Shown here one piece after another: positions 9,095 through 35,878 of a stretch of 64,000 nt of DNA (positions are counted from its first letter, which is position 1; each line of letters begins with the position of its first letter). The translations under genes and the position numbers were made by a program. This DNA is from Massalongia carnosa (taxonomy: Eukaryota): positions 1,550,001-1,614,000 of the forward strand of contig OZ287087.1 in assembly GCA_965645245.1 (NCBI GenBank), read 5' to 3'. The notes beneath the pieces were generated by a model. That model was not told the DNA's origin. It made no database searches and was given only the letters and a program-made list of their open reading frames with translations.

Positions 9095-11825
9095 TCTGTA
9101 AAGTCGCGCGGCGCGGATTTACATGACTAGGCTATCTCGTGGTATCGATGATTTAAGCAAAAAAACATACCGCCAGATATCTCGAGACGGGCCATTGAAA
9201 TGACAGGGCTGTCGGGGACCTGCTTTGTTTCATTGACAAAATCGGGCTCGGCTTCATACTTACCCTCAAGGTCGTCTGTTGAAATTTCTTTTGAAATTTC
9301 TTCGGAAAGATACTGCTGATTGTATTTTAATATATTTTCTCCAAGTTTCTTCAATCCCTCAACATAAAGATTAGCGGTTGGATTAGTTGAAAATCGATCA
9401 TAGCTTCTTTTACAGAGTGATTTATGCGCTAGTGCCGTAGCCATGCCCCACACATCCTCCGCGGCCGATTTTGCTGGATGCCTTGAAGATTTGATTCTTC
9501 CAAAGTAAAACTCAACGATTTCTTTGAGCTTCATAAGATATGGACCGTTGAGTGCCCAGTTCTCGAGCAAGGTGTCACTATACTTTGAAAAATAAGATCG
9601 CTCGTGTTGGAACGTCTTGAGGTTATTGTTTAGTATCTCTAAAAGCCGATCAGTCTCAAAACTCGACTCTTCGTCACCGCGTAAATTGACAAGACTATTC
9701 ATTAAAATACTTTCCTGTAGCCTTATGGTCGCTGCGGAAGAATCAATCGCATGAAGGGTGTATAAAAGAGCTTGCGCATATTTCGGGGTGCCAGCTACGC
9801 TTGCCTGAAAGATCACTGTTGCGTGGCGCAATGCGTGACGAAGTAGTCCAATATCCGCATATTTGATTGCGTATCGAAGTGTTAGATACGATTCAACGTG
9901 ATCACAGAAGTTCTGATGATTCTGAAATTGTTGATCAAGCGTTGGAGGAAGCATATCTATTGACGTTGAGCGTAATTCCGCTTGAAGTTTGCGAGATATC
10001 CTGCCCAACATATTCATCCAAGTGCCATCCTGCCCGCAAGTCTGCGCTGTGAAATAGTTGCTTCGATTCGCTGCGGAGCATATCCATCCTTTCGTAAAAA
10101 CCTAATCCACGTCCCAATGATTCTAGCTTGATAGCTCTGAATGATCAGATCCTCTAAGGCCTGGAAATCGTTCGGCTGCACGACACGAGCGCGACCCCAC
10201 CGATCGGCGGCATATTGAAGAGTCGAAGGATCAACCGGCTGGGCCTCTCCCCAATGTATTTTATGAATAAGCTGCAGCATGTTAAAGCGAAGATGCCATA
10301 ACCCTAATCCCGGTAAAATCCAGTCGAACCGATCGAAAGATTGCTCCGATATCCCACGACGTAATTCCTTGACAGATTGCATTCTCGACCATGTCTTGAG
10401 GTCACCATAGATAAGCCGAATGACGCTCGCAAACGTCGAGTCATCCTCCTTGAACTTGAACTGTCGCACAAATATATCCTCCAATATTTGAATATTATTA
10501 GATGTTGTGCTCTCATCTTTCATGACTGGTTTGATAGGAATGTAATTGGTCTTGTATTTTTTCATCTTATTCAGCACGGGCATTGCAGTCGACCAGGGAA
10601 GTTGAACGTCGCCGATCTCTGGGCCATAAAGTGCTCGAATCGCTGACTCTAGATGATGAAGACGAATCTAGGTGCGCGGTGCATTAGCGGTTGAGCGCGG
10701 TATATACATCTCGTCCTGTATTGAACTCACCTGCATCTCGAGATCACCAGTCTCCAGCTTTCGCGCGATTCTTTCAGCTGATAAAAGATGCGTGGCGGGG
10801 CGCCACATATCCTGCCTCAAAGCGCCGGCATCGAATCCTTGCCCCTGGAAAATTAGAGCAGTAGTGATTGATCTGACGTCTCTATTATCCCCCGTGCGCT
10901 CTCCTCGTTTACCTTCTGCGAAGTCAAAGTTATCGTATGTCAAGATCATGTTTGAGCCTTGTCCTAGCATCTGAACCTTTCGTTCGGCCTCCTTAATCAA
11001 GGATAACATGCGCCGCTGCAGGGTAGTATATGACATCGTCAGGTCAAAATGACAGAGTGTATCTAGAACTCGCCGCCTCGCCCCACCTTGATAAATATAA
11101 AGGCCTAAGACGGACTGAATATTAGTCGCCTTATTAGGTCGCAATTTGTGACAAAGCATTGCCAATATAATGGTGTGCCGGCCGCTGGGAGAATCCAACG
11201 TCACATCGAGAGGTTGCTGAGGGCGAGCCTCGCGACAAACACCATCAATTAGCTCAAGCCATCGTGGCGCCAACTGCTTGGCGGCAGATGCAGCAAGTTT
11301 AATAGCCTCCAAGGTCCCAAACTCGACTGTCGCAGAGGGCGGCTGGAAAGGGCCAAAGGCTGCGTGATCTGCCAAAGCTTTGATTTCTTCACGAAGCGCA
11401 TCCGCGGCCCAAACCCATCCTCTCTCGCGAAGGATAGTGGATATTCTACCAGGCCCAATGAGGCTTGAAAAGTTTTCTTGCCGCACAATATCGACATAGA
11501 CAAAATCGAAGAGCTGGCCTTGCGCCTTTCGCATACTATGACGGGCTCGATTCTTACAAAGTGTTGATAAAAAATCTTTTACCGACCAATTTAGAGAGCT
11601 CAGAACTTTAAGCACCTCAACCAGCTTGTCGTAATCTGATATGCGCCGGCGGTGGCGTTTCGCGCCTCCATTTTTTTCAGGTAAGGCAGGAGGGGAGGAG
11701 GAAGAGGGTGAGCTATCATTACTGCCTGACGGCGATGGGTGGGGCCGCTTGAGCGCACCGGCGGGAGTCAAGGGACTTGTCCGTAGGTCGGTAAGTGGCG
11801 AGGAGGGGCCCCCGACAAGAGCCAT
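9095..11825 (-). pseudogene. DUF6589-like / Academ-type DDE transposase
   Basis: YDNFDF, GDLKT, GLGLWH and ETDRLLE motifs; intron 10730-10668; frameshift ~10020-10090; convergent with the RecQ gene. Confidence 0.75.
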
Positions 11826-12623
11826 GGCTTTCGTCAGATAGCTTCAATCTAGAGATATCATACAATATCATTGATTGGCCGTCATTATTCATATCATCAT
11901 GATCTTTGTAACTAAATGTAATCGCGCTACATGAAAATAATCAGTTCATCAACCTCAAAATTGAGCGAAAGCGAGCAATTTATCACTTAATCGACTCTCA
12001 CATCGCTTTAATAGCCTGATGGTGGTTATAACACATGATTATCGAGTCATCCATCTTGAGAGGTGCGTTTTTGCTATAAAATACAGTCTCTGGTAAACTA
12101 ATTCGACCCTAATCATTGTATTAAATCCATAAAACGAAAGGTGGCACTGATAAAATTTTTATTACCCGGATCTAGCCGTAATTTTGAGTTTTGCGCTCAG
12201 ACGTACTATCGCACTGATGATAGTCAGCAGCGACGCTAACCCGAAGGGGCTTAGCGAAATAGGCTAACCCGGAGGGGCTTAGCCGACTCATAGAGCCACG
12301 CACGTCTGAGGTACTGAGGCAACTCGGTCGCAAATATTCAGGTATCTCGGCAAATTCCAATATCGGTTAACTTAATGGTAAAGCTTATTTAACCGCGAGG
12401 TCGTTATACGCCGTGACTTAGGATTTCAAAGCAAAGTACATTCCAGGACAAGAGTTTCGAAGTAGCTTAAAAATCAAAGCATAGCGACATTCTTTGAAGC
12501 AGGAATTAATTATCCAATGATTAAAATGGTATATAAGGACGTAAAGGGCGATGGAGGTGGGTGTGGAAGGAGGTTGTAATAATTTTCTATGTGAAAAACT
12601 TTTCTAGGTACTGGAAAACCATA

Positions 12624-14514
12624 TTACGCCGCCCATGTGGCCGAGTCCCAGAGCCTGATCGTCGTGTCCCACGATGCGGACGCGATCTGCTTCCCGTCTG
12701 GCGAGAATGCCACCGCCTGAACAGAATCCGAATGACCCTTGAGGATGTTGCGCGAAGCCCTCGTGGCCGAGTCCCAGAGCCTGATCGTCGTGTCCCACGA
12801 TGCGGACGCGATCTGCTTCCCGTCTGGCGAGAATGCCACCGCTCGAATCCCACCCGAATGACCCTTGAGGATGTTGCGCGAAGCCCCCGTGGCCGAGTCC
12901 CAGAGCCTGATCGTCGTGTCGCTCGATGCAGACGCGATCTGCTTCCTGTCTGGCGAGAATGCCACCGCCCAAACAGAATCCGAATGACCCTTGAGGATGT
13001 TGCGCGAAGCCCCCGTGGCCGAGTCCCAGAGCCTGATCGTCGTGTCGCTCGATGCGGACGCGATCTGCTTCCCGTCTGGCGAGAATGCCACCGCCTGAAC
13101 AGAATCCGAATGACCCTTGAGGATGCTTGCCGTATGCCAATCGAATTGAGTCGCTGGTTCTGATTTTGAAGATGCTACTGCTTCCTTAGAAGTAGCTAAA
13201 GTCTTTTTAGTAAGCACGCCCGTAGAGCTATGCGTCTCGTAGGCCGAAATTGAGTCTCGAGTGCTCCAATTAGCAGAGGGCTCAGGATCTGAACAGTCCA
13301 GCGGTGTTGACATTGGCTTTGTAACATTGATTTTTCTGCAAAGATATCAGCAACACTACAACATTATTATTATAAGATATTATAATAATTTTCTGTCTCC
13401 ATCTATAAGAAGTAATACCTTGGAGTGTCGGGAGCCGCCTCTTCTATAAGAAAATCCAACCACGAATGTTGTAAACATTCATTAGCCCTCGGACGATCCT
13501 CAGATTTTGACGCCATTGAGCTTTTTAAGAAGTCGCATCCTTGTCCGCTTACTTTGTTTACAAGCAAGACATCCAAAGGAAATTTAAAGTTGCCCGCAAC
13601 ATACTGACCTAGACGGCGCGGGTCTTTGAAAAGAATCTCGCCGGTGAGTATGAAGAATGTGATAACACTTAGAGACCAGATATCAACAGCGTTTGTATAC
13701 CAATCATTTGATTCGTCGTTCAATTGAATAAAGCCAAGTACTTCTGGTGCCTTAAAAGCAGGTGTGCCTCTTTGGGTTCTTAATGCTGTAAGTCCCTCTG
13801 TTGCCCGCTTGCTGACTCCAAAGTCTGCGATCTTGACCCACCAATCTGGGCCTTTGTACACAACTAGTATGTTCTGTATTACTTAGAGTATTAGCTAAGT
13901 TTCTGATTTTATTGATGCATGTAGCTAGGCTTACAGCTGGCTTTAAATCCCTGTGAGCGAACCCTTTATCATGCATGAATTGTAAGCCTTCGAGGATCTG
14001 AAAAACGATATGCTGTCCTTCCTTCTCTGGTAGCGGTGATCCGAGGTACTTATGCAAATCACCATATGAAAGGTACTCCATAGTAATAAATATGCTGTCA
14101 CTATCATCATACCAGCCGAAGGACTTAACAAAGCATCGTTCGTACTAGCTTGACGTTAGCGTAAGGTATGGAAAAGTAGGTTGTGAATGATAACAGCAGT
14201 AGACTTACATTGCTGTGAGAAAACAGAGCAATAGCTTCCAATTCTCTGTAATAATCGCTGGACTCAAGTTTTCGGAACTTCTTTACAGCTCGTACTTTCC
14301 CTTCACTGTTCCCTTGAATACACCGCTCTAACCAGACGATCCCGAAACTGCCGCTGCCTAGCATCCTTTCTCTCATCCATTTTTCCTCCATGCGAACTTT
14401 TCTTTGTCTTGCCGCACTTCCAGAAACGTACTGGACGTGTTGCGTATATTCCGGATCAGAGTGGAATTGAGTCTCGAGCTTTGAAACCTGCACAAGGTCT
14501 GAAATAGGTGGCAT
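12624..14514 (-). CDS. Ser/Thr protein kinase fused to about 4 highly conserved WD40 repeats (3 introns)
   Basis: LGSGSFGIV, AVKK, HRDLKPA/NIL, IADFG, GTPAFKAPE, DIWSL. GT-AG introns at ~14208-14147, ~13935-13876 and ~13418-13340. Last exon has GH..SVxAVAFSPDGKQIASAS.DTTIRLWD repeats. Confidence 0.85.
12637..13125 (-). repeat. Tandem 126-bp repeats (~4 units) encoding WD40
   Basis: Near-identical 42-codon units visible at the DNA level. Confidence 0.95.
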
Positions 14515-14955
14515 GGTAGCGATCTGACATCTGCTCTTGTGCGGACAGGAGGCGCTTGGTCTGTAGATCATCAGCTCGAACTCACGCGCAAATCGTAAGA
14601 TGCCGGCAGTCACCGATCACAGCTTACAATCACAACGCGCAAAAGATGGTCGGTCATTCAAGATACCATAGCGTAGTATGTGAACTATGTCTGACCTACA
14701 TCCCGGAGCCTGAGCACTGCTCCGCATCAGCGACGGGGTCGTCGTCAGAGGCGCCGGATTCAATGGAGATGACAGGGTCCGGTTATTCTGAATGGCAGAG
14801 CGTGAAGGAGACCTCTCAAACACCTCTTTATGATATAGGTAGGTATAAGCTCGTTCTCATGATGGCTACGGAAAACGAAATCTAGCCTTATGCCTTCTGC
14901 CATAGGATTCAGCCCCGCCATCACATCCCCAAGCTCAAGCTTTACCTTATCAAGC

Positions 14956-15696
14956 GGGTGACAAAATAAAATTTAAAACAAAATTTCTACCCCACCAAAA
15001 TCATCAGACTTTTTATCCACCATCATATTAAATAATCATGAATCGATCCACCACTCCACTTCTTGAAATTACAGGGCCTGGAGTCGAAGTTCCTACACCT
15101 AATAAGGCAAAAATTCAAGGAGCTGTAGAATTTTGCGAAGCAATGGGAATATCTTATTATAAGGAAGACGTTTTTCGTGTGTTTAATGTTTCAAGACAAC
15201 AAGGCTACAAATATCTACGCAGCGAATCTTCACGAAGACATCATAATAATCCTGATATATCAGAGCAGCGGGGTCGAAAATCTATCATAACACCTCAACA
15301 AATACGAGAAATGGAGCGTATTCTTGAGACCGAAGGCATTTAAGCACGAGCTTTAACTTGGGAACAATTGGGCTACGAAGTTGGCTTGGATTGTAGTGGT
15401 CGCACTATTCAAAGAGCGATGGGTACGATGGATTATCACAAGTGTGTTTCTTGTAGAAAGGGCTGGGTCAATAAGAAAACAGCAGCGCATCGAATCAGTT
15501 GGGCAACTGTAATGCTTGAGAAATATCCTGAGCCGGAAGATTGGCATCATGTACGATTCAGCGATGAGGTTTATTTCGGCTGGGGTCCTCAAGGAAAACT
15601 ACGAATCATACGAAAACCTGGAGAAAGATATTGTCAGAATTGTATTCAAGAAGAGAATGAACCAGACGAGAGGGACAAAAAGCGTCATCATTGCTC
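14956..15696 (+). mobile_element. 5' part of a Tc1-like transposon, truncated
   Basis: HTH region, RGRKSII, RTIQRAM, WHHVRFSDE; stop at 15341; coding similarity ends abruptly at ~15695. Confidence 0.8.
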
Positions 15697-15753
15697 GAGA
15701 AGACTCGGGACAGTCCCCCCACCGTCCCCCCAGCGAAATTCATTCCAAATTAG

Positions 15754-17101
15754 GACTAGCTACAAGCCACCTGCCCATACTAAATAATTAGGTGCATTTA
15801 TTAATAATATTATAGGTACAGGCAGCCCTCTGTATAAATTTATCACTATGATAGGTAGACCACACTTCTTCTCTCCCTTAATCTTTTTCTTTGCTATGGC
15901 CCTCATATCAACGTCCCTGGATGCACGTTTGCAAAGGGCTATAGCGAGTTTACCGTCGTCTCATTGTCTTCCTCCGAGTGAGAGTGAAATCTTTATCTCC
16001 TGGGAGAAGGGAAAAACTAGATTTCGTCGCGGGGGTGTTGATTTGCTGCATGCGGCCGCACATTAATCTATTGATTTTCATAAATCAATAGAAAATGTGC
16101 AAAGAAGGGAGGGATACGCTCGTGAATTCGCCAAATTCACTGCTATTTTCAATAAAAAATGGCAGGATAAGGAGCTGGCGAGGCCACTTATTCCTACAAC
16201 TTTCCCCGACGAAATCCGACCGAAGGACAACCTCATGTATAAAAAGAGTCGGAGTCGCCGGCGGGCTTACACTAGCCGTGAGGCAGCTGAGGCAGATGAA
16301 GCTAAGCAGCGACGTGCTAAACGTAAGGACTCGATTGAAGAAGGGAGGAGAAGAAGGCATGAGGATGAATTGCGGGCAGGCGGTGAAGACAAGGGTATGA
16401 TTGACGATAAAAAACCCACGATATCAACAAATCGATCGATGTAGCGCGGCTATTATTCGGTATATATTCCGGAGATGCTATCAGCGTATCTGACGACGAT
16501 GACCTGCAATATATAGCAACTTAGCCTACCCCCGATCCTCCACTCCCTCTGAATGAGAATGATGATTTTATCCCTCCATCCCCAGCATCTTCTTCCGATT
16601 CATTTGAGGATATTGATGAAGTGCTGGCGAAAAATAGCCAAAAGGCTCTTTCCCAAACGGTTCCTTCTTCAAAAGCTCCTTCCCTTTATAGCCTCAGTCA
16701 AAAAAACATCCGCACTAGTCAGCTATCATTCACATCGTCTGCAACAACAACACGAGGGTCACGGGGTGTGGTAGCCAAAAAATCGAAGGCTCAGTTAGAG
16801 TTGGAGTCTTAGCAGAGGGCCGACCAAGCGGCTAAACAAGCAAGGGCTGAGGAGAGGAAAAACGCAGCTGCAAGAAAGGTTGCTAAGGCTATGAAGCCTA
16901 GAAAGGATGATGTTTCGCAATTGAGTGATGCATTTTCGGAATTGAGATCAACGCAATGAGTGGTAGGGGTAGTAGTAATAGTAGTAGTATGAATAGATGA
17001 GGATTTTTCAGAATGCGGGGCTAAGCTAAATCAGCTAGAGGAAGCCCGGAGAGACGGTGGACGTGCACATATTTAGTATGGGGAGGTGGCTTGTAGCTAG
17101 T
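15754..17101 (+). mobile_element. Internally deleted MULE-like element with ~31-bp inverted repeats
   Basis: ACTAGCTACAAGCCACCT.CCCATACTAAAT is mirrored at ~17071-17101. Remnant peptides (HCLPPSESEIF; RRRAYTSREAAEADE) resemble fungal MULE transposase N- and C-termini. Confidence 0.6.
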
Positions 17102-18275
17102 GTGACGAAGCGAGATAGTGAATAGATTTCTACCATTGCGCCACCTGTCCTCCAGACCAAAAGGCAAAATACTTAGTCCGCAGACCAAGTTCTATTCTAC
17201 TATAACTGGGACTCCTGCTACAGTACTAGGCCAAAAGTCTGCGGCCCCGCACCTTACCAACATTTCAATCATTCTATTCAATCAACAATCAACCACGTCA
17301 CGATTGCTGAAATATCTTGAAACTTTACATAATGATTACATAAATAAAGAATTCCCCCAAAAATTGATTTTTAATATTTAGTATACAATCCTTCCGACGC
17401 TATACACGCTTTTATCCTCCTATTCATGCTCTCTATTAACCTCCTAATCATTTTCACATATATCAACGTCCAGGCTTCTTCTAACGCTTTCCAAAGTACC
17501 TCACGAACAGTTTCATCACTGCCGATCACCAAATGTCAGGCGATTAGGTGTCACATGACCCGCCATGGGTCACATGACCAATGACCCCCTATTAGATATA
17601 TCCCTCAGTTAGCTAGCCTAGACCTCCCATATAGATCAATACATACCACTCCTTTTCACCCATATTTCACATTAGCCCATACAGCTTGATAGTTATGAGC
17701 CCGGTGAGCATAGAAGCTTCAAATTCCTACTCATTGATTTAGTTGAATAAAACTCTCTTCCCAAAACGATCCAACAAAACGATCAAAATGGAGGAGACCA
17801 ACAAAGCAACGATGATCGCACTAACCCCCGAGAATTATCATCTATGGATAAGGGAATTACAAGGAATATCCGAGAAAGCGAAGGTATGGCAATATGTAGA
17901 CCCCAATAGTTCAAAACCGGAGCCCGAAGAGGGAGAATATCCGGAAGTCTCACAATATCAAGTCCCTATACAAGCACAGTCAGGAGGTGGAATTGCATAC
18001 CCCATAATAGAGGGAGGAGTTGCAATAGCCACGAAATCGGCTGAAAGATACGGCGATTTATCGACTGAGCAAAAGGAGGACTATAAGATGGAGATATCAT
18101 CCTATAAGATGAAGGAAAAGCAAGTGGAGAAAATCGCCCAAGGGCTCAGACTAGTGGACAATGCACTAAAGAGCTCAGCACGAGCATATATACCTCCCAA
18201 TAAGATGGCTTCATCAGTTAGGGAAATAGTGAAAATTCTGGCTGCAAGCTATAAGCGGTCAGATGACCAAGTCAT

Positions 18276-18622
18276 TGTCATGGAGTGACTGGGCACCTGC
18301 CAGTTAGTTCATTGAATCAACCTTAGCTGCTTGAACGAAGCACTAGCCGGTTAGCCATCCGAATGGAACTAAGCTTAATCCGGTTCAAAGGTAATTGTTC
18401 CGACTATCAATAGTGTCATGGCGATAGTTTCATGCTAGGGACTTGGGGGAAATTGAATCAACGGCTGGATTGGGACTAGTTCCGTTCGCCAGAGTCTTAT
18501 ACTCGCCCACGTTGGGTTTTCTGTTTCTTTTCTCCTTGTCGAACGTCTTGTCCACCAAGCTAGACAATCAAGTAACACACGTTTGTACCACCTGAATTCT
18601 TACCTGACCTCGCACCGTGACA
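18276..18622. mobile_element. Solo LTR inserted in Copia gag
   Basis: TGTCA...TGACA termini with perfect 5-bp TSD GTCAT; the gag frame resumes afterwards. Confidence 0.9.
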
Positions 18623-20939
18623 GTCATAGAGCAATTGCATGAGCAATTTCTAGCTCTAACAACCCCGCCCATTAAAGGTAAAATAGGGGCATGGGTCGCT
18701 GATTGGGAGAATATTAAGGGAGAAATTGTTGAGCTCAATGTAACGGGCCTATTTGGCTCCGAGACCATATTCATTAATGAGTTTCTCCAATCAGGGAAGA
18801 AATGGGGGCCCAATTTCTGTGAAAACTGGGTAATGCAGCATAGGGCTGCTAAGACGACGGTTGAATTTTACGAGACAACCAGGGAATATCGTTTAGCCGT
18901 GGAATCATTCCTGAATGAGGCAAAATCAACGTCTAGAAATCAAGCTAATGCAGCCCCACTGCAGGGACAAATGCAAGAGCAGATCAGTGATAAGAATAAC
19001 TCTAGCCAATCAGGAACGGGCCAATCGAGCCAATCATGGAATGATTAAGCAAGAGAGGCCAGATTCAAGAATAAAAAATGCGTATGTGGGATAATACACC
19101 TGTTCAGGCTATGCCCATATATCGTCAAATCAGCTCGCCCCCCTGCATGGAAGGAAGATAAAACTGTACGCAATGAAATGCGTCAGAAAATTCAGTCAAA
19201 CATTCGATTTTTCGTGACCATTAAGAGAGTCACCGATACCAACATACTAGATAGAATAACTGAGGAGTCAGTCAACAAGAGCTCTCAAAAAACAAAGAAT
19301 GATCAGGGCAATCATGACATAGAATTGCCTGGTCAATCCTTCTCATTTGCAAACGTCACATCTAGGACAAATAATCCCTTGCATAAGAGCGTCATATTTG
19401 ACTCCGGATGCGATAACCCCCTGACCTATGATAAATCACGGTTTATAGGAGAAATAACCCCAACTTCGTCAGACATGTGGGTGGACACCCCCGACGGGGA
19501 GATGAAAATTCAAGGTCATGGCACAATGAGAGTAAATAGCCTATTGAATGGTCAGAAAAGGGAGCTATTTTTCGAAGGAACAGCCTATATTCCTGATTCA
19601 TCAGTCACCTTAGTCTCGGCCAATAAGCTGAAAAAACGAGGCTTTTTCTGGGATATGTTCACTGATACTCTGATTAACAAGGAGACAAAGCAGCATATAT
19701 GTGAAATAAAGGACCATTATGGACTCCCAATCATAGAATATAACCCTGAATTCATAGATATGGGGTTTGCTAACTCGGTGCAGCCACGCGATATGTCAAA
19801 GGCTACTCCATGGAGATTGCATCTTCGGCTCGGCCATTGTCGACCAGAGGTGATCGATCAGCTGAAGAAGATCGATGAGGTGACAGTTTCAAAAGGAGAA
19901 AACGCACCTAGAACCATTTAATGCGAAACGTGTGCAGTCTCCAAAATGCATAGAATTATCAATAAAGCTCCGTCAGGGCGTGCCATCAAGCCATATCAGG
20001 TGCTTCATTTTGACCTAACTATCAATGATAAGGGGTTCGATGGAACGAGCTGTATAGCTCATTTTACGGACGAATTTATCTCATATGTATGGGTTTATCC
20101 ATTTAATAATCATAAGGAAAAGACTCGATTGCCCATATTCAAAAGCTTGATCAATCAATGCGATAGGGCTGGCATTTCCATTAATTCAATGGTAACCACG
20201 ATTCGCACGGGGCAAGAAACATCAGTAGGAAAGGCCCTAGAAGCATGGATCAGTTAGCAATGCATATAATAGTCATGGTCAGCAAAGAATACCCCTGAGC
20301 AAAATGGCGTTTCGGAGCGTTTCGGAGCCCTATTAACGGAAAAAGCTCGATACATCAGGGAATATGCGAAAATGCCAGAAGACCTGTATCCGGAGTGCTA
20401 TTTAGCTGCAGCCCATCTGATGAATCGAACCCCCAATAAAGCTCTAGAATGGGACTCCCCATTGGTCAAATTACAGAAACTGACCAATCCGGGCCAATCA
20501 GTCAGATACGAGCTGGCTCATCTAAAAGTGTTGGGTTGCAAGGCGTATCCATTGCTAAAAGGGGCCGATGCTCCTCCCAAAAGCAAAAAGTTGAAACCTA
20601 GGGCATTTGTTGGCTATTTGGTTGGCTATGATTCAATCAATATCTTCAGGATATGGAATCCAGAAAAGGGAGATGTCAGCGGTTATAGAGACGTCATATT
20701 CAACGAAGATGAGCTTTATAGCGCCTATACGTCGAATAAGGAGCTATTGCTAAAGGAGACTGAAAAAGCGAGCTTTATAGAGTTTCATGTAATTGAACCA
20801 CGCCCCGCATTTCAGGAGATAGATAGTGAGAAAGAAGAATGGCTAGACTTATCAGTCAATAAGCGTATAGAGCAATTGACCATACAAGATAACTCACCTA
20901 GTCAGGACGAAATACAGGAGAAAATAACTCCCTCATCAA

Positions 20940-21426
20940 TGTCACGAAATCAGGTCGAGGGCAAGGGCAAAGGCAAGGTGGGTTGATGGTCAAGCTTATT
21001 GATTGAGTCTATAGCTATGAATCTAGGCTAGGCTAGGTTGGCTATTCAAGACGTTCGACAAAGAATCAGAACTTCCATGATTCGGCTTCTTTCTTATATC
21101 TTTGTCCTCCCATATTCATCTTTCTAGGGTGGCGGCGAATGATGTCTAGTCAGTGCGATGATGAATGAGGGGCATTATAGCGGCAATAAGCACGATGGGG
21201 TCAGCGAGGAGACGGGAGATGTCAAACATCAATGCGAAGCTATTAGACATGATAATAGTCGAAAGACGGGAATAAATCATCAATGCGAGGCTGATTAATG
21301 ATCAGTAATCGGCGAATTCGAAGAATGATATGAGGGTCCCGAAGGCATGGCACGACGTCCGTGAGTAGTCATCAGATCAAGGCACGTGATAGAGGCACGT
21401 GGTGAGGTCGGAGGCATTTCATGACA
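20940..21426. mobile_element. Solo LTR inserted in the Copia IN-RT linker
   Basis: TGTCACGAAAT...ATTTCATGACA termini with perfect TSD ATCAA. Confidence 0.9.
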
Positions 21427-24400
21427 ATCAACGCCTATGCAACTGGAAACGCCGATAAAAACACCTGAACCAGATAGAAGCTGTAATATCTCCATAGATA
21501 AAAGAAGGGCCAAAAAGGTGAAGGCATCAACAATTGACCCTCCACAACTCCCGCAAACGGGCCGAACACCCCTCAATGTGACGGAAATAGAGCAATCATC
21601 AGGAAAAAGGAGCGATGGGATAAATGAGGCAAACTTTATAGAGGGAAAACGTACTAGGAAACCAAACCCTAGATACGCCGTAAATGGAGCTTGGTCAGCC
21701 GAAGAAATGTCGAAATTCCCTCAATTTCATACAGCGTTTATGGCGGGGAAGGCTAGAATGACTAATCAGCTCCGAACTGATGATTTGCCCGACCCCCCAT
21801 CTTATTGGCGAGCCCTACTAAGGCATCCCTATGCAGATGGGTTCATGAAAGCAGCAAACGTTAAATGGGAGGCACTTTTCCACAAAGAAACATGGGAAAT
21901 AGTTGATCAAGATGAGGCTATACAGCCAATATTGCCCCTCAAATGGGTTTTCACCTATAAGACTGATTCGGACGGCTATTTGGCAAAGTTTAAAGCACGT
22001 ATAGTGGTTAGAGGTGACCTACAGCAAGATAATGCTCAAGATGTTTATGCAGCTATACTAGCCTTCAAGGTGTTCAGGGCATTAATGGCATTAGTTGCTG
22101 CATTCGGGCTGAAAACGAGGCAGTTGGACGCTATTAACGCCTTTCTAAACGCTCACAATGACCAACCTATTTACTGCTTTTTGCTTGATGGTTTTAAGCT
22201 TAGAAAAAAGGTGCTATAAGTGAAAAAAGCGCTATATGGCCAAAGAAAATCACCCCTTCTATGGCTACGAATGCTAATAGGCAAATGCATAGAACTAGGG
22301 TTAAAACAGGTGCCAGGCGAACCATGCCTATTCTATACGCAGGGAATCATACTATTCTTCAATGTTAACGATATAGTAATGGCGTATCGGCCCAAAAAAG
22401 AAGCCGAAGTCGAGGAATATATGCAACGTTTCATGAAGATGATTGAAATACGGGACTTGGGTCTATTAACCTATTTTCTAGGCGTACGGGTCATTCATAA
22501 CATAGAAGAAAAGACGATCCACTTGATTCAGGACTCCTATATGAACAAATTAGCCAAGGAGAATGACATAGATGAAAAGTCGGAGGCTAAAACACCTCTA
22601 ACGCCCATATTCAATGAAGAACTGGCGGCATATGAGGGGGAGGTGAATCCGGCCAGAATGCATCTATATAGGAAGAAAGTTGGATCAATATGCTACCCAG
22701 CTATTATTACTCGGCCAGATATAGCAAAATCAGCTTCAAAATTAGCTGAATATCTGACTTACCCGGGACCTAGTCATATGAGGGCTGCAGACCATTGCCT
22801 ACGTTATCTATATGGGACGAAATATCTGGGAATCCAGTACTCGGCCAAAGGGGGCGGTGAAATCACTACTATGGCAAATCATGGACCGGTCCCGGCTAAT
22901 AAGCAGGTTTTTGAGGCAACGGCTGATGCATCCTATGCAAATAACCCAGATAGGAAAAGCTCCGAGGGCTATACATTCAAGCTATTTGGTGGGATGATTG
23001 ACTGGGCCGCTAGGAAGCAACTGACCGTGACCACTTCAACCACTGAGGCCGAGTTATTGTCTATGCTTCATGCGGGTAAAGAGCTCATATGGTGGATACA
23101 TCTGTTTGAAAAGCTACAATTTAACCTGGATCAAGATATAGTCATCTATAACGATAACCTACAGACAATTCGCATTTTGACCTCCGAAATGGGAAAAAAC
23201 TGACACTAAATTGAGGCATATAGACGTCGCCCAATGCTGGCTTAGGCAATCTGTGCAAAGGGGGGAATTATGTGTTGACTATGTGCCGACCAATCAGATG
23301 GTCGCAGATGGTTTAACCAAGATCCTACCTCCTCAAAAGCATCAACATTTCGTCAAGATATTAGGGCTAGTCAATGCCATTGACCTGGTCAACAATCAGA
23401 AGAAGAAATACGGCCACAAATTGAATCGGCCTAAATCACTAGAAATAAGGTAAAACATGGGAATTTTTCACCTAATATAGGTTTTTCGGTCATGGCAGCT
23501 TTGGTCAAAGCTGGGGGGGTATGTCAGGCGATTAGGTGTCACATGACCCGCCATGGGTCACATGACCCATGAACCCCTATTAGATATATCCCTCAGTTAG
23601 CTAGCCTAGACCTCCCATATAGATCAATACACACGACTCCTTTTCACCAATATTTCACATTAACCCATACAGCTTGATATCAAATCTATGTTCGGGTTGA
23701 CTTGATAGACGAGCCTTTTGAGCACATACCAAACGTGCTCGATGGGATTTAAATCAGGTTAATAGGGGGGCCAATCGATGACCTCTATGCCGTTCTCATT
23801 GAACCATTCCATCACATTTTTAGCCTTATGTATATGTGCGTTATCCTGCATGAAAATGAGGCCCGGTTGCCAAATTCCAAGCAGATTATCGTTCAATAAA
23901 TCCATATATGAGTTCGCCCAGTACCCCATCTTCTTCGCAGCAAAATCACAAGCCAATTTGTAAAGATCTGACTTGTCATCTCCCCAAAAAGCTGCCAAGA
24001 CCATGACACTGACTCCTTTGCCTTTGGGGACAGGTTGTATCATCTCTTTATTCCATTTTTCTTTCGGCAATCTGAATACCCACTGACGCTGTTTTCCTGA
24101 CCCCTTTTCCACCGAGCACTCATCTGACCATATAACTCTTGACCACTGCTAAAAAGTCTACTCACGCCGTAGCAAGCACCAATCCAATCGTTTCTTGGCC
24201 ATCTCAGGCGTCAATAAAGGTCGTTTTTTAGTCACCCAGTTGGTTAAACCATACAGTTTAAGTGCCCGATAAATGGTCGTACGACTGCAGCCAAGCCCCA
24301 CTTCTAGTTTGATTTATGCATAAGTGATTCATGGATTGATTCGTGCATGCTTGATGATATAACGTCGATCGCGTTCTGACAGCACTTCAGGCCGTCCAGA

Positions 24401-25215
24401 ACGTGATTTAGACACGCCGTCGTTGCGAGTTGAGTATTTCTAAATTGTGCTTTGCACGGTCGATTTAGTGAAATTAAGAGTCTTCCCAATCTCGGTCGGT
24501 ATGTGCCCCAACGCCTGGGCCCCAACAACTATACCACGTTAATATGGTGTCAATTCAGTGTTACGAGGCCTATTACCACTTATGGGGGTCAAAGAAGCAC
24601 GAAGCATGGTGAAATGATTAGGTGAAAGATGGGGGGTTGATGAGTTGAAAACGCGAAATCATGAAAATTACGGGATGGGCCGCAGACTTTTCGCACGGGA
24701 CTGTATATTCGCTGTAGGTCCTGCCGTCCGCACCACGCTTGGTCGAACCGTTACAGCTAGTCCTAATTTGCAATGATTTTCGCTGGGGGGACGGTGGGCG
24801 AATCTTCTCGACAGATTTGTGCCTTTTCGTCCTACATGGCTAATAGGTCGGTTAACTTAATTGTAAAGCTTATTTAACTGCGAGGTCGTTATACGTTGCC
24901 TCAGTACGGAGGATAACACAAAAAGTCCTTGGATGCGCTGAGAATGGCACTAAGGATTTAGCGCTACAGCAATGCCCCTTTTCCATATTTGATTTATCAT
25001 CTTTATTTTTCACATCAACCTTATTTTCAAAGGACAAAATGCATTGAAAATCAGTTCTATATGTAGACTTTTGACATGATCAGTCTACATCACTGTTATC
25101 AGATATAATGTCTTTATGATAGCGAATGCGACGATATTTAGAATTATATTGCCGAACCATACCATTGTCTCGACCCTCTCGATACTCGTTTACTCTATTC
25201 AAACCGATGACTTCT

Positions 25216-25381
25216 TGTCGATATTAATAGACCGTGGTTCAAGCAAATTCCCGAAGTAAGATCCTGTTGAAGGAAAAACACGTGATTTCGGACTAATAAC
25301 CGAGGGCCTCGATCTTTCAGATACTATTTCTTTCTAGGCCATATATCTGATTTCTAATACTCAATGATTTCAAAGCATTGT
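25216..25381. repeat. LTR-like ~165-bp direct repeat, copy 1
   Basis: Near-identical to 27555-27719; starts TGTCG. Confidence 0.8.
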
Positions 25382-25887
25382 ACCTCGCATGGGTTCCGGA
25401 TCACTAATGATTTATTAGTAAATAGAAGTGGCTGGAAGATATCTAGATTATGAAAGAATGTGGCGAAATGGTCTATATAGCTAGCTAGTGAAGAAGGGTA
25501 GTCGTGCGTGCTAATGGAAGGTGGTGGTACGTGATAATAGATGGCGAACTGAGCAGTGAACACACACATAAACACACGTCTGAATGGACCTACGACTGCA
25601 TAGACATGAAAAGAACTCGACGACTGAACGACTGAACGACTGGTTGATACACGAAATAAACGTGTGTCGATGACTATGTGACACGACGATGATGATGATA
25701 CTGTAGGTGATAGAAGATGATTTCCGGAGATGATGAAGAAAACGCCAGCAAAAAACCCGTTTTATCCCCACACAGGCTTGCCATGTCACCTGACCATAGA
25801 TGACATATGTCGCCCCACCACACTAGAATTTCCAGTTTAGATAGACAAGGAGAACATCATTTTCCAGATCAATAAGAACGGTCCGAC

Positions 25888-27132
25888 ACTTCTTCTATAT
25901 GTCGTGGAATTCGTTCTATCCATTGCTGAATTTGTTTTTGTTTCAGAGTTATTGTTCAGCACCGAGTCCATGCTTTAATAGCCGTATTGCGATTTCGAGG
26001 TGCTCCTTTTCGTGTGGTTTGCCTTTTCATCCAAGGCCAACATTGCTCGATCATATTCAAATCAGGAGAATTACCCGGCCATAATAAACGCAAGACTTCT
26101 GCATCCGTAAAGACGAGGTCTTGATATTTGGAAGCATGACTAGGGAGGGGCCTTGTCCTCCTGGACAGTAGTATCGGGACGATCTTTTATACATTCTTTT
26201 GCAAACGGAAGAAGTTTGGGAAGAAGAACAGTTTTTTGATAACGATACCAGTTGATGCCCCCTTTGCCTTTTCGAGCCACTTTTCCATTCTTTTCATCCC
26301 ATTTCCAGACCGGTTTTCGAACTCCTTTGGTACGCAGTCCCATTCGTTTTATGCCTATTTCCAATTCCCAGTTTTCTTTCGCTAGAGGCTCCAATGCCTC
26401 ATTGATTTTGTCGATTTCTCCTTGAGCGGCACGTTTTTCTGCCGCTGTCTCCGGCTTCCATATATGAAAAGGACCTTTCTTTTCATACGAAAAACAACCC
26501 CAAAACATGAATTCGGAATATCCTTTCCATCTACGTCGAATGCACGTTTGAGCATATTTTTCTTTTGGAGTTCGCCACTGAAGTCTTCGCCCTCTTCGAG
26601 AGCCTAAAACAACACTAGTTTTATCGCTCCATATGACATTCTTCCAGTCATCGAGAGTCGAATGACGATAACGCAAACAGAATTGCAATTAAGCCTCTTT
26701 CATTGCTGAATCAAGGCCTGGTTTCATGGTAGATTTGCAGAGACGAGAGTTATTGCGTCGAAGAACATTGAGAATAGTTGTAGATAAGACTCCGTGCTCA
26801 TATCCCAAAACGGCTGAGTATTTTTCTCTACCATTTCGATCATGACGAATGTTGTCTAAAATGGCCTGTTCAACCTCAGACGTCACTTTAAGAGGACGTC
26901 CTGAACGACATGCATCTTCTACGTATTCTACCTTCAATATTCGCGAAACAGTGGGATCATATCCTCGATCTAGTGCCTTGCGCTTGATATAACTGATAGA
27001 CTGAGTAGAGACTCCGGTGACTGCTTGAACGACTTTGACTGCAATGCCGTGTTCAACCAAACATAATTCTTGTAACTTTTGCCCAGTAGTCAGACTATTG
27101 TTCTGAGTTCTTGATTTTATGATTCGAAGCAT
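25888..27132 (-). pseudogene. Tc1-like transposase, truncated
   Basis: RSGRP, WKNVIWSDKT, FMFWGCF, VQEDKAP, WPGNSPDLNMI, ERIPRHIEEV; stops at 26689 and 26140; TIRs not found. Confidence 0.85.
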
Positions 27133-27162
27133 ACAAAATTTTATTTTATGATATCTGATAAA

Positions 27163-27504
27163 TGAAGGATGAACTGGGTAGTGTGCGTGGTCCACTACTG
27201 CTAGGAGTGCAAGAGAACAAACAAACAAGAGAAGAACAGAACAATAGAATAAGGACAATAGCTAGACTGGTCTCTGTATGCCTCGTGCCTCGTGCCTGTG
27301 AACTGTATATATTGATGTTATGTGTTGTGTAGCTATTGCTACGAGCATGCTTGCTCCAAAAGGAAAAGAACTATCTATAACTAAGCTAAAAGAAAGACTG
27401 TCACCTGACTTCTCCGCTACCTTTACCGAGTATCAGCCGAAAAGAACCAACTCCCGAACCGCTAGCAATTTGAATTTAGAGTATCACCGCTCCACCCCCC
27501 TACA
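27163..27504 (-). mobile_element. Solo LTR of the Ty3 family at 32904-44585
   Basis: High identity to 32904-33260 and 44229-44585, with several transitions and a few end bases missing. Confidence 0.92.
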
Positions 27505-27554
27505 ACGGTAATACATACCATTTTTATTATAGCCATATAGCCATAGTCATATAC

Positions 27555-30424: not shown

Positions 30425-32236
30425 ACGTAATTCACTAGTCAACGGGACAAACCGCTCAACGGGTCTAACTAAATTTCGCTTAATTCTTGAAGCCTCCCAC
30501 CCATTTTACATACAGTTTCGGCTTCAATGTCTAATAATTGTAAAAATAATGATCATCTACATGTAAGTTTACTAAAATAATCCCATTTTACGTGGTAGAC
30601 GAACAATACGACCCCGTCTGGTAGTTTGAACCTCCTTCACCACCTCAACCACCTCCACCACCTCCTTTGCCCCTTCCACCGTCTCTGTCACCTCCTGATT
30701 GGATGAGGCATGAAGGGGGGTAACAAACATTCTTTTGAAGGACTTACAGGCCTTCTTTGTGAATTACAGGGAATTTTTTGAGGACTTTTCGTAGGGGATG
30801 TAGACGTTTGTCCTAGTAAATCAGGCCCAAATCGACACATTTCTCTGAAGGTTTTGATAAGATTCTGCTCCGCTCGTTTCAACTGAGCGGCCTTCTTTTT
30901 GTCATCCTTCACCTTCTGTTGATTTTTAGCCTATTGCTGTCTTTGTTGAACGTCTTCGAGGCTCAGGACTCGAGCCTTTCCACCATAGTGAGCCCCGCTA
31001 CGATTGGCTCGATGATGCCGCCGTAAATTGGCCTGAAGAAGCTCGTTGTATGTAATTCGTAGCAAGGTAGAGTCGGCAAAGGCGTATTTGGCCCCCTTTA
31101 TCAATTTGTTTAGCGCTCGGGCGGGTGTCGAGTCTGAATTCTCATCAGATCGAATTCGACGAATCAATTGAGCTAATTGATCGATATTTGCAGGTGTCTT
31201 TCCTACCTTGATGACAGCTTTCTGAGAATTCTGAATTATCGGAGCGTCAGGGTCAGAGACCGACGTGGTCTCCGGATCAATTCCGACATTCGTAAAAGTG
31301 GAAGTGGTGGTAGTGGTAGTGGTGGTGATGGTGGTGGTAATTATGCTGTCAGTCTTTCGCAACACCGATTGTTTATTAGTGAGTTTCTGAAGAACTATAG
31401 AAGGATTGTATGGCACTAATCCGGTGACTCTCCACGCAGTGAGCACGTTTTTTGTGTTGATTGCTTCTTTTCTTGCTTTTTGTATGATCTTCAAAAAGTC
31501 CACCTTGTCAATCGAACAAACGTTGAATCGAGTGACGGCCTCCAGTTGTTTTTTTTACTCCCGAGACAGGGACCGAAAACGCTCACGTCTAGAGGTTGTA
31601 GTAAATGTGTGGTATGAGGAGGTAGACACAGAGGAGTTATTTTCTTTTCATTGCAAAACTTGATAAATTCAGTAGAAATATGAGAAGCATGACCGTCTAC
31701 CATCAGAAGTTGATAATCACCATGTAAATATTTTGCAGTAGCAGGTTCAAAACATCTTTTCAACCAATCGACACCTAGTTCGTTATCTGTCCATCCGTTT
31801 TCGCTGGTGGCGATTTCGCTGTGAATATCTTCCAGAATATCCAACCAGGCCTTCAGTTTGTTTACCCCTTTGAAAATGACGAAGAGGGGTAGACTGCGTC
31901 CAGTAGCAGAAATGGCCTCGATTAATGACACCCATTCTCGACTACCTGATTGTGCTGAAAATGCCTGCTTTTCGTGCTTAGATATTACCACTTTAGCACT
32001 AGCGGCCACCCCCATCATGAACCCTTTTTCATCCATATTGTAGATGTCTTCATCAAGAATTCCGTGTTTTTGTTTGACGGAAAAAGCTCGAACCAATGTT
32101 TAAAAAGAGCCAAACGACCTCGCGACAGCATTGAAGACCAACCGTCCAATATGGCTAGCGATCAAGTCTCGCATTGTTTGAAATCGAGAAAAAGGAAACG
32201 AAGCTTGGTAAATTATCGGATTGCCTGATGTTACGT
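30425..32236 (-). mobile_element. pogo/Fot1-type transposon, 5'-truncated
   Basis: TA|ACGTAATT terminus with repeated TCAACGGG; YNMDEKG, GWTDNE, LMVDGHASH, HLLQPLDVSVF. Confidence 0.9.
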
Positions 32237-32903: not shown

Positions 32904-33712
32904 TGTGGAAGGATGAACTGGGTGGTGTGCGTGGTCCACTACTGCTAGGAGTGCAAGAGAACAAACAAACAAGAGAAGAACAGAACAATAGAATAAGAAC
33001 AATAGCTAGACTGATCACTGTAAGCCTCGCGCCTCGTGCCTGATGCCTCGTGCCTGTGAACTGTATGTGTTGATGCTATGTGTTGTAGCTATTGCTACGA
33101 GCATGCTTGCTCTAAAAGGAAAAGAACTATCTATAACTAAACTAAAAGAAAGACTGTCACCTGACTTCCCCGCTACCTTTACCGAGTATCAGCCGAAAAG
33201 AACCAACTCCCGAACCGCTAGCAATTTGAATATAGAGTATCACCGCTCCACCCCCCTACATAGTTCCCCTCTCTCTTTAGGTGTCGACCCCTGACACCTA
33301 TCACTGTTCCTACTCCAGCGTTCGCTTCATTCCGGCCTCAGCAAACACTAACTTCTCCTCATCCAGCTCGGGTCCCGGAGTCGTATCAATGTCATCAGAG
33401 ATGTGAGGAATAGGCCTGCCATGTGACTCTCGCTTTAACCGAAAAGATGACCTAGTCCCAAAGTCCTCTTCCTCTGCTTTCTTCACATGCTGAAACATAA
33501 TAATGGCCTCCTTTAGTGTCCGATTCCTCCATTCTCCAACTGCCCGTGACAGTTGGGCCATATCTACCTCCTCAATAACATCTTCTCGTTGAGCTTTGAA
33601 CTCTTCTTCTTTCATCACCGAGGCCCAGGCATCATTCTGTATGACATATGTTGGAATACTCGCTTAGCCCCATTAGTTCTAGCTCAGCCCTGCAGGCTGC
33701 CATGACTGCTAT

Positions 33713-35878
33713 CCCTCTCGCTGTCATTCTAGCACCCCCCCCCCAAGCTAATCTATATTGGACTAGCTTCCGCACCGATGAGTCATCAGAACATTAGTTT
33801 TCTCTAGAGTGTTTGCGCGTTTGTTTACTTTTCAAAGAATACTATTCGGTCATTCAATCAAAATAAATCACATAAATTACTATTCTTCTAGCTTCGGAAT
33901 TGATATTATAAGTATGACGCTCAATGAAGAAGAAATCCCGAGTGTATCAGACAAATCTCCCATTTCAGCGAAGCAACATAAAATAAATCGCAAAAGAAGT
34001 GTTCGGGATATTTTAATCGACCTTCCCCCTATTTCCTCAAAATATACCCCCATTCGGGTTGAAAACAGGCCTTTTGTTCCGCTCGTTGAAAACGATTCTC
34101 GAAATCCTTTGGGATTATTTCGGTTATTTATTACAAGGCAGCATTGTCGTATCATCGCAAATCATACCAATATCAAGGCAAATAACTACATGGAAAAGGA
34201 GAAGGAGAACAATCATCGGGTTTGGACTGACACTACTGACTCGGAAATTGAGGTTTTTTTGGGCATATTAATTCTTATGGGACTCGATCATCTACCTGCT
34301 ACAGAGGATTATTGGAATCAACGTCCTGACAAACCAGTTATCATGCCTATTCTGTCCGCGATGTCGCTTGGTCGATTTCAACAAATCAAACGATTTTTGA
34401 AAATCAATAATGGACAGACTGAGCCTATCGGACTTGGTCAAGGACCTGATTGGTGGAAGAAACTGGAACCGTTGGCTACTGATTTCCGAAAGACTTCATT
34501 GAAACATTGCAGACCAGGAAGTATGATATCTATAGATGAACAGCTGGTGTTATTCAAGGGCCGTTCTCGACATACCTTGCAGATTACTACAAAAAGTGCC
34601 CATAAAGGATTTAAAATCTACAGTCTCTGTCAGGATAATTATCTGTTGTCATTTATGTTTGCCTCGAAGAGTAGCAGAATAAGTGAATTGAAAACAGTCA
34701 GACAATTGGGATTTTTGCCAAAAGATAAACTAACTCCTAGTGCTTTGCTAGTGATTCAGTTATGTAAAGAACTTCCATCCTCACTGAATTATCATCTTTT
34801 CTGTGATAATTTCTTTACTAGTACGAAATTATTCAAGGCACTTCGATCAATCGGAATAGCTGCCAGTGGAACTGCTAAAAAGGGCTCGGGCTTTCCAGAA
34901 GAATTGTTGGCCATACGGGACGTCACTTCAAAAGGAAAAGACTGGGGTCTTCAGGCCCATATGGTGGTCGACGATAAGGTGCTTTGTATGGGCTAGGTGG
35001 ATAATAATGGTGTGCAGTACATGACCACCGGTCATTCTCCTCAGGACTTGTACGAAATGCACTATATAAATCCGCACAAGAGATATGGAATTCCCGAGAC
35101 CTCTCTTCAACCTATTGTATCGTATTTCCCATCAACTCTGGCTCACTCCATTCCCTTGCTCAATCAAGAGGTTCAACGGCCCTTAGGATTACCGATACCA
35201 GCCCCAATCAAAGAATATAATCTTCATATGGGGGGATCGGATGGAAACGCTCAGCAACGAGCGATTTACTCATACAATCGTCGAACGGATCGTTACTGGT
35301 GGCCTTTGTTCATTTTTATTTTAGATGCAGCCGGATTGAATGCCTATAAACTTTACTCGCTGAACTCTTTCGATTCCGAGGAGATAAAATTTACTCGTTC
35401 TGAATTTCTTCGTCGGATTGCTCTTGAACTGATATCAAATCAAGCGGGCATCAGGCCCGGCTCATCAAAGATAAGCATCAATACCACGATTGATGCTTTA
35501 GTACCATCTCCCATTCATCATTACGTTCGTCTTGAACGCAGAAAAAGATGTGTGCAATGTAACGCCGAGAAAAAACGACCTTCAAAGCGGAAGGGAGAGC
35601 CACTGGCTGAAATAAGTGTCGATGGGCGTAAAAGAAGGCGAAGGGGTGCTCAGACTATATGGGCTTGTGGAGGATGTAATCCAATCAGGCCCTGCTGTAA
35701 GAAAGCCAGCTGTTGGGAAGCTATTCATATGATAGGGGACGAGTAAATAGGTATCTGATACTCCGTACAACTTCTTGTGAATAGGAATAACATTGATTGG
35801 TCAAAAGTTTAAGGTTTAGCGCTTTCTAACCAACAATGGTTTAGCTTGGGGGGGGGTGCTAGAATGACAGCGAGAGGG
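33713..35878 (+). mobile_element. piggyBac-family DNA transposon
   Basis: ~39-bp TIRs CCCTCTCGCTGTCATTCTAGCA(C)nAAGCTAA at both ends. Confidence 0.93.
33914..35746 (+). pseudogene. piggyBac transposase (DDE_Tnp_1_7 type) with a single in-frame stop
   Basis: SIDEQL, GFKIY, CDNFFTS, YNLHMGGSD, YWWPLF and Cys-rich tail; TAG at 34994 replaces the expected Trp. Confidence 0.92.

Follow-up and report, generated by a model that had tools for sequence, protein, structure and literature searches.

What kind of unit lies between positions 12311 and 24907 of the 64,000-nucleotide stretch of Massalongia carnosa DNA analysed here (assembly GCA_965645245.1, contig OZ287087.1, positions 1,550,001 to 1,614,000 of the forward strand; hereafter the window, in whose own numbering all positions are given)? 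This 12.6-kb segment carries one host-type gene, coding for a kinase-WD40 protein, and is bounded by short terminal inverted repeats (TIRs) and by a 48-nt sequence, the 48-mer, repeated in the same orientation near both ends. The original prediction took it for an unclassified cargo element from which a tyrosine recombinase (YR) acting on the 48-mers would excise a circle of about 12.5 kb. Our chief result is negative, in that this recombinase-site reading has neither statistical nor gene-content support. The end features nevertheless belong to one another, and we tentatively favour the reading, possible though short of an even chance, that the unit is an old, low-copy, non-autonomous class II TIR element, likely of the Tc1/mariner type, with the kinase-WD40 gene as its cargo.

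Inverted repeat and 48-mer are linked beyond chance

The left end is composed of CGTCTGAGG, TA, CTGAGGCAAC, 39 bp and then the 48-mer, and at the right end the 48-mer, with two changes, runs straight into GTTGCCTCAG, TA and CGGAGG. The left inverted repeat GTACTGAGGCAAC (12311-12323, + strand) has its exact reverse complement at 24895-24907 (- strand), which reads GTTGCCTCAGTAC on the + strand; depending on the target duplication that is assumed, the candidate starts of the element are 12312, 12314 or 12315. The left 48-mer, TCGGTTAACTTAATGGTAAAGCTTATTTAACCGCGAGGTCGTTATACG, lies at 12363-12410 (+) and the right copy at 24848-24895 (+), and window self-BLAST aligned them in the same orientation with 46 of 48 positions identical (95.8%), the right copy having T for G at 24862 and T for C at 24879. 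Their placement is asymmetric, as had been described, the left copy standing 39 bp from its inverted repeat and the right copy overlapping its own by one base. The flanks reported earlier, CTGAGG followed by TA on the left and TA followed by CGGAGG on the right, were also found, and the sequence adjoining TA is GCACGTCTGAGG in the left flank and CGGAGGATAAC in the right one. The 39-bp left spacer (12324-12362, +) is without counterpart at the right end, and the 36 bp that separate the right 48-mer from the neighbouring long-TIR element C' (24812-24847, +) are unrelated to it and contain no continuation of the transposase fragment A described below.

In the whole window the 13-mer GTACTGAGGCAAC had two matches, one per strand, at no more than one mismatch (0.07 expected), and the 30-nt core of the 48-mer had two at no more than three mismatches (0.00 expected). 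A third copy of the 48-mer was absent from the 18 repeat pairs that window self-BLAST gave once self-hits and mirror rows had been removed, and short-word BLAST of the window with either end gave only chance matches of 10-16 nt elsewhere. Since perfect inverted 13-mer matches at most 15 kb apart number 78 in the window, real TIRs among them, the 13-bp inverted pair by itself carries no weight. Among 200000 random pairs of 120-nt segments, however, no more than 59 had a perfect inverted 13-mer in common, and the presence of such a pair beside both copies of the 48-mer therefore indicates that the four end features belong together, upholding the proposal that they bracket, as one set, a unit with one host-type gene.

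The limits of these repeats are sharp. Inward of the 13 bp the inverted similarity between the ends scored 14 against a shuffle mean of 15.6, and beyond the 48 bp the direct similarity was within the shuffle range on either side, as was the likeness between the left and right flanks and between the 39-bp and 36-bp spacers. A continuation of the direct repeat past 24895 and a GCAAAT motif common to both ends, both suspected by eye, failed the shuffle tests and were dropped.

Recombinase features, cargo gene and nested transposons

The recombinase reading had started from an 11-8-11 dyad in the 48-mer with 8 of 11 symmetric arm positions. This figure holds for the left copy; the right copy reaches 7 of 11, one of the two substitutions weakening an arm, and a dyad of at least 8/11 in the form 11-(6 to 8)-11 was present in 8.4% of 5000 random 48-mers from the window. 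A dyad at chance level is no evidence for a recombinase site. The single-stranded DNA folds of the two 48-mers (z -0.88 and +0.70) were likewise no better than those of shuffles. Using Pfam, we scanned 21 of the 27 open reading frames (ORFs) of at least 100 aa, six alternative-frame overlaps being left out, together with 12 read-through frames of the non-Copia interior, that is, all six frames of 12311-17532 and of 23680-24908 with stops written as X, and neither set gave a match to Phage_integrase, DUF3435 or NDC10_II. Of the gene types named earlier as worth listing between the ends (YR, DUF3435 or DDE), the last is present in the form of DDE_3 and HTH_Tnp_Tc3_2, and the other two were not found. 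The 48-mer is unlikely to be a recombinase crossover site. Nor do the ends look like fragments of a tRNA-derived short interspersed nuclear element (SINE), an origin that had also been named: ARAGORN found 0 tRNA genes in the window and Rfam gave 0 matches at E ≤1 in 11800-25400.

Elsewhere in the window, three consecutive ORF pieces at 49837-51689 (+) match NDC10_II (E 2e-10) and, weakly, GCR1_C (E 0.0014, 19.4 bits, below the Pfam 23-bit cut-off), a combination of domains described for the tyrosine-recombinase transposons of the CryptonF group (PMC3212892). These pieces, 25 kb away from the unit, probably represent a disrupted Crypton, and short-word BLAST of the window showed nothing resembling the 48-mer in their surroundings.

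The Pfam families of the interior were Pkinase, WD40, HTH_Tnp_Tc3_2 and DDE_3, with Copia domains within 17743-23203 and no others, and the scan of ORFs and read-through frames thus bore out that the kinase-WD40 gene is the sole content not derived from transposable elements (TEs). The gene (12624-14571, -) has four exons and three canonical GT..AG introns, with donors GTAAGT, GTAAGC and GTATTA, CTAAC-like branch sites and AG acceptors, and it encodes a complete kinase domain and has four 126-bp WD repeats, 91-93% alike, that end at a stop. Judged by its sequence, the gene looks intact. Highly similar internal repeats are characteristic of self/non-self recognition genes in fungi. We aligned contigs of four public runs (X1-X4) to the window at a likeness of at least 85, and one of them, of 676 nt from run X1, matches the 5' part of the kinase gene and the sequence upstream of it (14323-14946) with 71 differences and 21 gaps; a contig so diverged suggests either a diverged paralogue of the gene or its orthologue in another fungus of the sample. 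The same TE-rich window also holds a Pkinase_fungal protein kinase (52874-55008, +) and a gene resembling those of nucleotide-binding oligomerization domain-like receptors (NLRs), with an NPHP3_N NTPase, a winged helix, DUF7104 and ankyrin repeats (58880-61032, -).

The remainder of the interior is a four-deep nest, in which the long-TIR element C' contains D, resembling a miniature inverted-repeat transposable element (MITE), D contains the Tc1/mariner element B, and B contains a Copia element, all of this lying beside the half transposase A. Element A (14950-15694, +) is the N-terminal half of a Tc1/mariner-type transposase, 219 codons with one in-frame TAA, and ends at C'. Its left limit is uncertain, being placed where the paralogous contig loses its match (14946), with a TA at 14948-14949. 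Ten matches of 385-465 aa were obtained as relatives of this transposase, and in tblastn with four of the ten (P0002-P0005) A was matched up to about residue 247 of P0004 only; the C-terminal ~140 residues that A lacks were not found by the same search from 24812 onward. We accordingly discarded the idea that A continues to the right of C', with the flanks of C' as a decayed duplication. That A is the unit's own transposase is weakened by the paralogous contig, although it is one contig only, whose match ends at 14946 beside the TA.

The non-autonomous C' spans 15695-24811 and has arms of ~90 nt, its left arm and body lying at 15695-17101 and its right arm at 17070-17101 plus 24755-24811, the latter being the outer part. 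Its flanks, catcattgc and cagatttgt, match at 5 of 9 positions and form no clear target duplication, in agreement with the junction without target duplication that had been noted for a Mutator-like element (MULE). As half of A is missing too, sequence at the junction was either deleted or exchanged between copies. The earlier suggestion that the unit lost its own enzyme there was right in so far as coding sequence has been lost; what is visibly lost is half of a Tc1/mariner-type transposase and no recombinase. Within C', the 168-bp unit D (17102-17220 plus 24704-24754) is flanked by a 7-bp duplication, AGCTAGT. Element B (17221-24703, -; HTH_Tnp_Tc3_2 and DDE_3) has Tc1-like TIRs CAGTACTAGGCC and a TA duplication (17219-17220 and 24704-24705), and is interrupted by the Copia-type retrotransposon (17530-23680, +). 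The 159-nt long terminal repeats (LTRs) of this retrotransposon are 96% alike, and it has a 5-bp duplication as well as several stops in frame.

Between 48 and 55% of the sampled words of 10500-15700 were present in five public runs, one of them labelled lichen metagenome. In the contigs of the four aligned runs, the joint 17218>24704, corresponding to D without B, occurred in 8, 17, 2 and 14 contigs (41 in all), and the joint 17529>23681, B without Copia, in 1, 2, 1 and 3 (7 in all); both were present in all four runs, which confirms the inner layers of the nest. The limits of D are marked by loose ends that continue into many different neighbours (47 contigs in X2 and 19 in X4 before 17101, 43 in X2 behind 24755), and D is a high-copy unit. 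At the left end of the 12.6-kb unit, three X1 contigs match from 12324 rightward behind a sequence other than the one here, though partly similar to it (GGAGGCAA, GCAGGAGGCAAAAGAAC), which has GAGGCAA in common with the inverted repeat; this context could be that of a second copy of the left end or a strain-specific insertion at 12323/12324. In X1 and X2, contigs extend from the left flank, in a variant with one hairpin, as far as 12320 or beyond (joint 12255>12300, with 21 letters or more per side). At 24862, where the 48-mer is covered by 4, 2, 1 and 3 contigs in the four runs, all aligned contigs read G save a small depth share in X4, and the contigs that do so may be left-copy contigs aligned twice. 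Neither an empty site (12310-12313 joined to 24905-24908) nor a solo form (12410 to 24896) was among the 15 of 107 joints listed, a list crowded by high-copy TE joints and hence uninformative either way, and among the pieces listed none covers either end of the unit.

Origin of the unit

A flanking duplication is combined with a TIR of 6 bp or more under only three choices of boundary, namely TA with a 10-bp TIR, GTAC with a 9-bp TIR, and CTGAGG/CGGAGG (5/6) with a 12-bp TIR. The first of these, TA on both sides of short TIRs, is the Tc1/mariner layout; the claim that the termini fit no standard superfamily was too strong. Transposase remains in the window comprise A, B, a third Tc1/mariner remnant (26007-26808) and pogo-type DDE_1 ORFs at 31491-32099 and 56050-56745, and with at least three Tc1/mariner-type and two pogo-type genes or remains of genes, such enzymes evidently exist in this genome. 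We infer that the unit transposed, with TA as its duplication and a Tc1/mariner transposase supplied in trans. An element with the 10-bp TIRs CTGAGGCAAC, carrying the kinase-WD40 gene, would have inserted with duplication of a TA target, the transposase acting on it from elsewhere; its interior would then have been colonised in turn, first by the Tc1/mariner copy A, then by the long-TIR element, the MITE, the second Tc1/mariner element and Copia, each inside the previous one, and a deletion or inter-copy exchange at the right end of C' would have removed a stretch of undefined length. The 48-mer would be a subterminal sequence present once per end in the same orientation, either a transposase-binding region or a relic of the origin of the element. 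The three X1 contigs with the left subterminal sequence behind a different context fit a second copy of such an element.

Several observations weigh against this reading. The window contains no copy of the 48-mer or of the ends beyond the two, the 48-mer core had 0 matches in metagenome_contigs, genome_contigs and viral_contigs, of which the last two hold prokaryotes and viruses so that the blank there means little, and a 23-mer from the right end had 0 matches in metagenome_contigs. Chance alone would place a 2-bp TA at both sides in about 1 case in 16, and the GTAC or CTGAGG/CGGAGG (5/6) boundaries fit equally well. The TIR is unlike the Tc1-like TIR of B, and at no more than two mismatches its 12-mer form had 7 matches in the window against 3.94 expected, no more than chance. 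An autonomous partner with matching TIRs and a DD(E/D) transposase was not found in the window, A having no right end and a left end apparently at ~14950. The binding sites of a DDE transposase are expected to be inverted, not direct, at the two ends, and the TIR-element model leaves the directly oriented 48-mer unexplained; the inverted similarity between the ends, for its part, stops at 13 bp. The two ends may also stem from two different copies, the C' junction being without duplication, and the loose end in X1 could be the strain-specific insertion mentioned above.

In a rival history the inverted repeats would belong not to the 12.4 kb but to a small unit of ~112 bp with TIRs, made up of the left repeat, 39 bp, a single 48-mer and the right repeat, and split by a 12.4-kb insertion that duplicated 48 bp of it, whether through break repair with template switching, through integration of a circular DNA via the common 48 bp or through an unusually long staggered cut. 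This history, which we regard as unlikely, accounts well for a direct repeat with sharp limits at exactly 48 bp on both sides and for the contact between the right 48-mer and the right repeat, given that removal of the insert and of one copy leaves a compact unit, and MITE-like units are common in the region (D, and the hairpin repeat at 12235-12283). The joined 112-nt unit closes by a 13-bp stem at -18.1 kcal/mol, a stability reached by 1 of 300 mononucleotide shuffles, but this stems largely from the inverted repeat itself, by construction. The 112-bp form is moreover a construct that has never been observed, no recombinase was found inside, and the family is not high-copy, with no further copy in the window and 1 to 4 contigs per run over the 48-mer against 43-47 different flanks for D. 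To our knowledge, no eukaryotic transposon class has target duplications of 48 bp. A more specific version, to which we give only a slim chance, regards the 48-mers as attL/attR-like junctions of a 12.4-kb circular DNA integrated into the ~112-bp unit by site-specific recombination or via the common 48 bp, the MITE-like sequence having served as attachment site and the recombinase having been lost at the long-TIR junction; the unit would in that case be a small integrative cargo element of a eukaryote. The recombinase cargo element of the original prediction, in which the 48-mers recombine with each other and the enzyme was lost at the same junction, we consider very improbable. Direct repeats at both ends can indeed be a trace of site-specific integration, an undefined stretch was indeed deleted at that junction, and the Crypton-like gene at 49837-51689 shows that such enzymes exist in the genome. 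Typical sites of these enzymes are described as inverted arms of 11-13 bp around 6-8 bp (PMC3212892), but the dyad here is at the level of random 48-mers and weaker in the second copy, recombinase domains are missing from the scanned interior, the visible loss at the junction is a DDE transposase half, and the sequence around the Crypton-like gene offers nothing similar to the 48-mer. Moreover, Cryptons are described as having no TIRs and 4-6-bp repeats (PMC3212892), and the Starship Tangerine as having 4-5-bp repeats and a captain gene (PMC13486527).

The unit could also be no unit. The two ends might be separate, truncated copies from a single small repeat family, equally oriented at a distance of 12.4 kb, of which the left lacks its last 12 bp and the right its first 52 bp, the 48-mer being their overlap and the DNA between them ordinary TE-rich chromosome. 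Several broken elements and one junction without duplication mark the region as a TE graveyard, and the 4% difference between the 48-mers resembles that between family members, or that between the Copia LTRs at 96%; two independent truncation events would however be required, no further member of the family turned up in the scans of the window or of metagenome_contigs, and for a very low-copy family a complementary truncated pair 12 kb apart is an unlikely coincidence, so that we find this explanation rather improbable. An assembly join, or a rearrangement confined to this assembly, would likewise leave no biological 12.6-kb unit, and would suit the repetitive nature of all flanks and most of the interior, the public contigs broken throughout the region with no listed piece spanning a unit end, and the G that nearly all aligned contigs have in place of the T at 24862. 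It is nonetheless very improbable in our estimation, as the 48-mers differ at two positions, which makes a simple overlap join unlikely, contigs of X1 and X2 reach from the left flank into the inverted repeat, and the link between inverted repeat and 48-mer would be left unexplained.

Surroundings of the unit and known cargo elements

Directly to the left of the unit, a 21-nt hairpin, GCTAACCCGRAGGGGCTTAGC, is present in two copies at 12235-12283 (fold z -3.2), and the pair lies within a unit whose inverted ends of 9 bp are CTCAGACGT at 12197 and ACGTCTGAG at 12301. The depth at 12256 in X2 was 606505, compared with 9352-27257 in the bins of the kinase gene, which indicates that the hairpin repeat is very high-copy, and a 44-bp variant with one hairpin was found in X1 and X2. 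Further left, three contiguous pieces of DUF6589 ORFs (9127-11843, -) adjoin the unit; in X2, X3 and X4 the depth of the bins at 10500-12101 exceeded that of the kinase gene 4- to 10-fold, which shows the DUF6589 element to be multi-copy, and its right limit may be close to 12311. Just right of the unit, at 25209-25897, stretches of 678-683 bp (25209>25888, 25213>25897) and of 338 bp (25484>25823) are absent from contigs in each of the four runs, and they are presence/absence variants of small insertions. Between direct repeats of 357 nt, 99.7% alike and 11.3 kb apart (32904-33260 and 44229-44585; a third copy, 92% alike, at 27164-27513), lie a polyprotein of the Gypsy type (37246-43715, -) and a transposase that resembles piggyBac, DDE_Tnp_1_7 (33782-35746), an arrangement suggestive of a young LTR element in which a DNA transposon is nested.

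The unit can be set beside several kinds of elements already known. In plants, Pack-MULE or Pack-type elements are non-autonomous TIR elements with host gene sequence between their ends, in which respect the unit resembles them; they usually contain gene fragments and have long TIRs and 9-bp duplications, whereas the short TIRs of this unit enclose a complete gene with introns. The hypothetical 112-bp unit, in turn, would be similar in size and in its TA flanks to Guest and mimp, fungal MITEs that have a TA duplication. Guest (98 bp, Neurospora) and mimp (Fusarium) are assigned to the Tc1/mariner type (PMC3227409). In the same account MITEs are defined by a small uniform size, usually <500 bp, and a high copy number (PMC3227409), whereas the unit has 12.6 kb and is low-copy, its small 112-bp form being hypothetical.

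Among larger fungal elements, MarCry-1_FO of Fusarium oxysporum is described as a mariner-type element fused with a Crypton, with 16-bp TIRs, a TA duplication and an extra gene (PMC3212892). The unit shares with it short TIRs and, if TA is its duplication, a TA duplication around an element with an additional gene, but MarCry-1_FO is reported to keep its DDE transposase and to have several copies >97% alike (PMC3212892), whereas here no intact transposase is demonstrably tied to the ends. Cryptons have direct repeats at both termini and a proposed circular intermediate in common with what had been suggested for the unit, and differ from it, as they are described, in having no TIRs, repeats of 4-6 bp and a recombinase of their own (PMC3212892), whereas the unit has inverted ends of 13 bp and a direct repeat of 48 bp, and no recombinase was found in it. 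The Starship Tangerine of the lichen-forming Xanthoria is likewise a carrier of cargo, of NLR type, and has TIRs of 10-12 bp set unequally (14 and 28 bp) from short direct repeats (PMC13486527); at the boundaries of the unit a short TIR is present and CTGAGG/CGGAGG (5/6) is a possible repeat. Starships are, however, far larger (170-196 kb for Sanctuary; PMC12506042), and are described with a captain tyrosine-recombinase gene in first place and with 4-5-bp direct repeats (PMC13486527), and none of this holds for the unit.

The closest parallel to our preferred reading, that of a non-autonomous TIR element with cargo, is ToxTA, earlier named ToxhAT. This 14-kb cargo transposon of wheat-pathogenic Pezizomycotina is non-autonomous, has a TA duplication and carries ToxA (PMC12506042). 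The likeness extends to size (14 kb against 12.6 kb), to bounding TIRs with TA on both sides, to the want of a working transposase of its own and to a host-useful gene amid TE debris; the difference is that ToxTA has 74-bp TIRs, proven empty sites and proven movement (PMC12506042), whereas the unit has TIRs of 10-13 bp and a directly repeated 48-mer. If the unit is real, it joins the cargo-carrying TA-flanked TIR elements, an already known class, and should its mobility be confirmed, ToxTA would no longer be the one case in Pezizomycotina in which a TIR element of medium size with TA flanks moves a whole host-type gene, and the unit would be the second. This would be of modest interest for the spread of kinase-WD40-type genes, here in a fungus found in lichen data.

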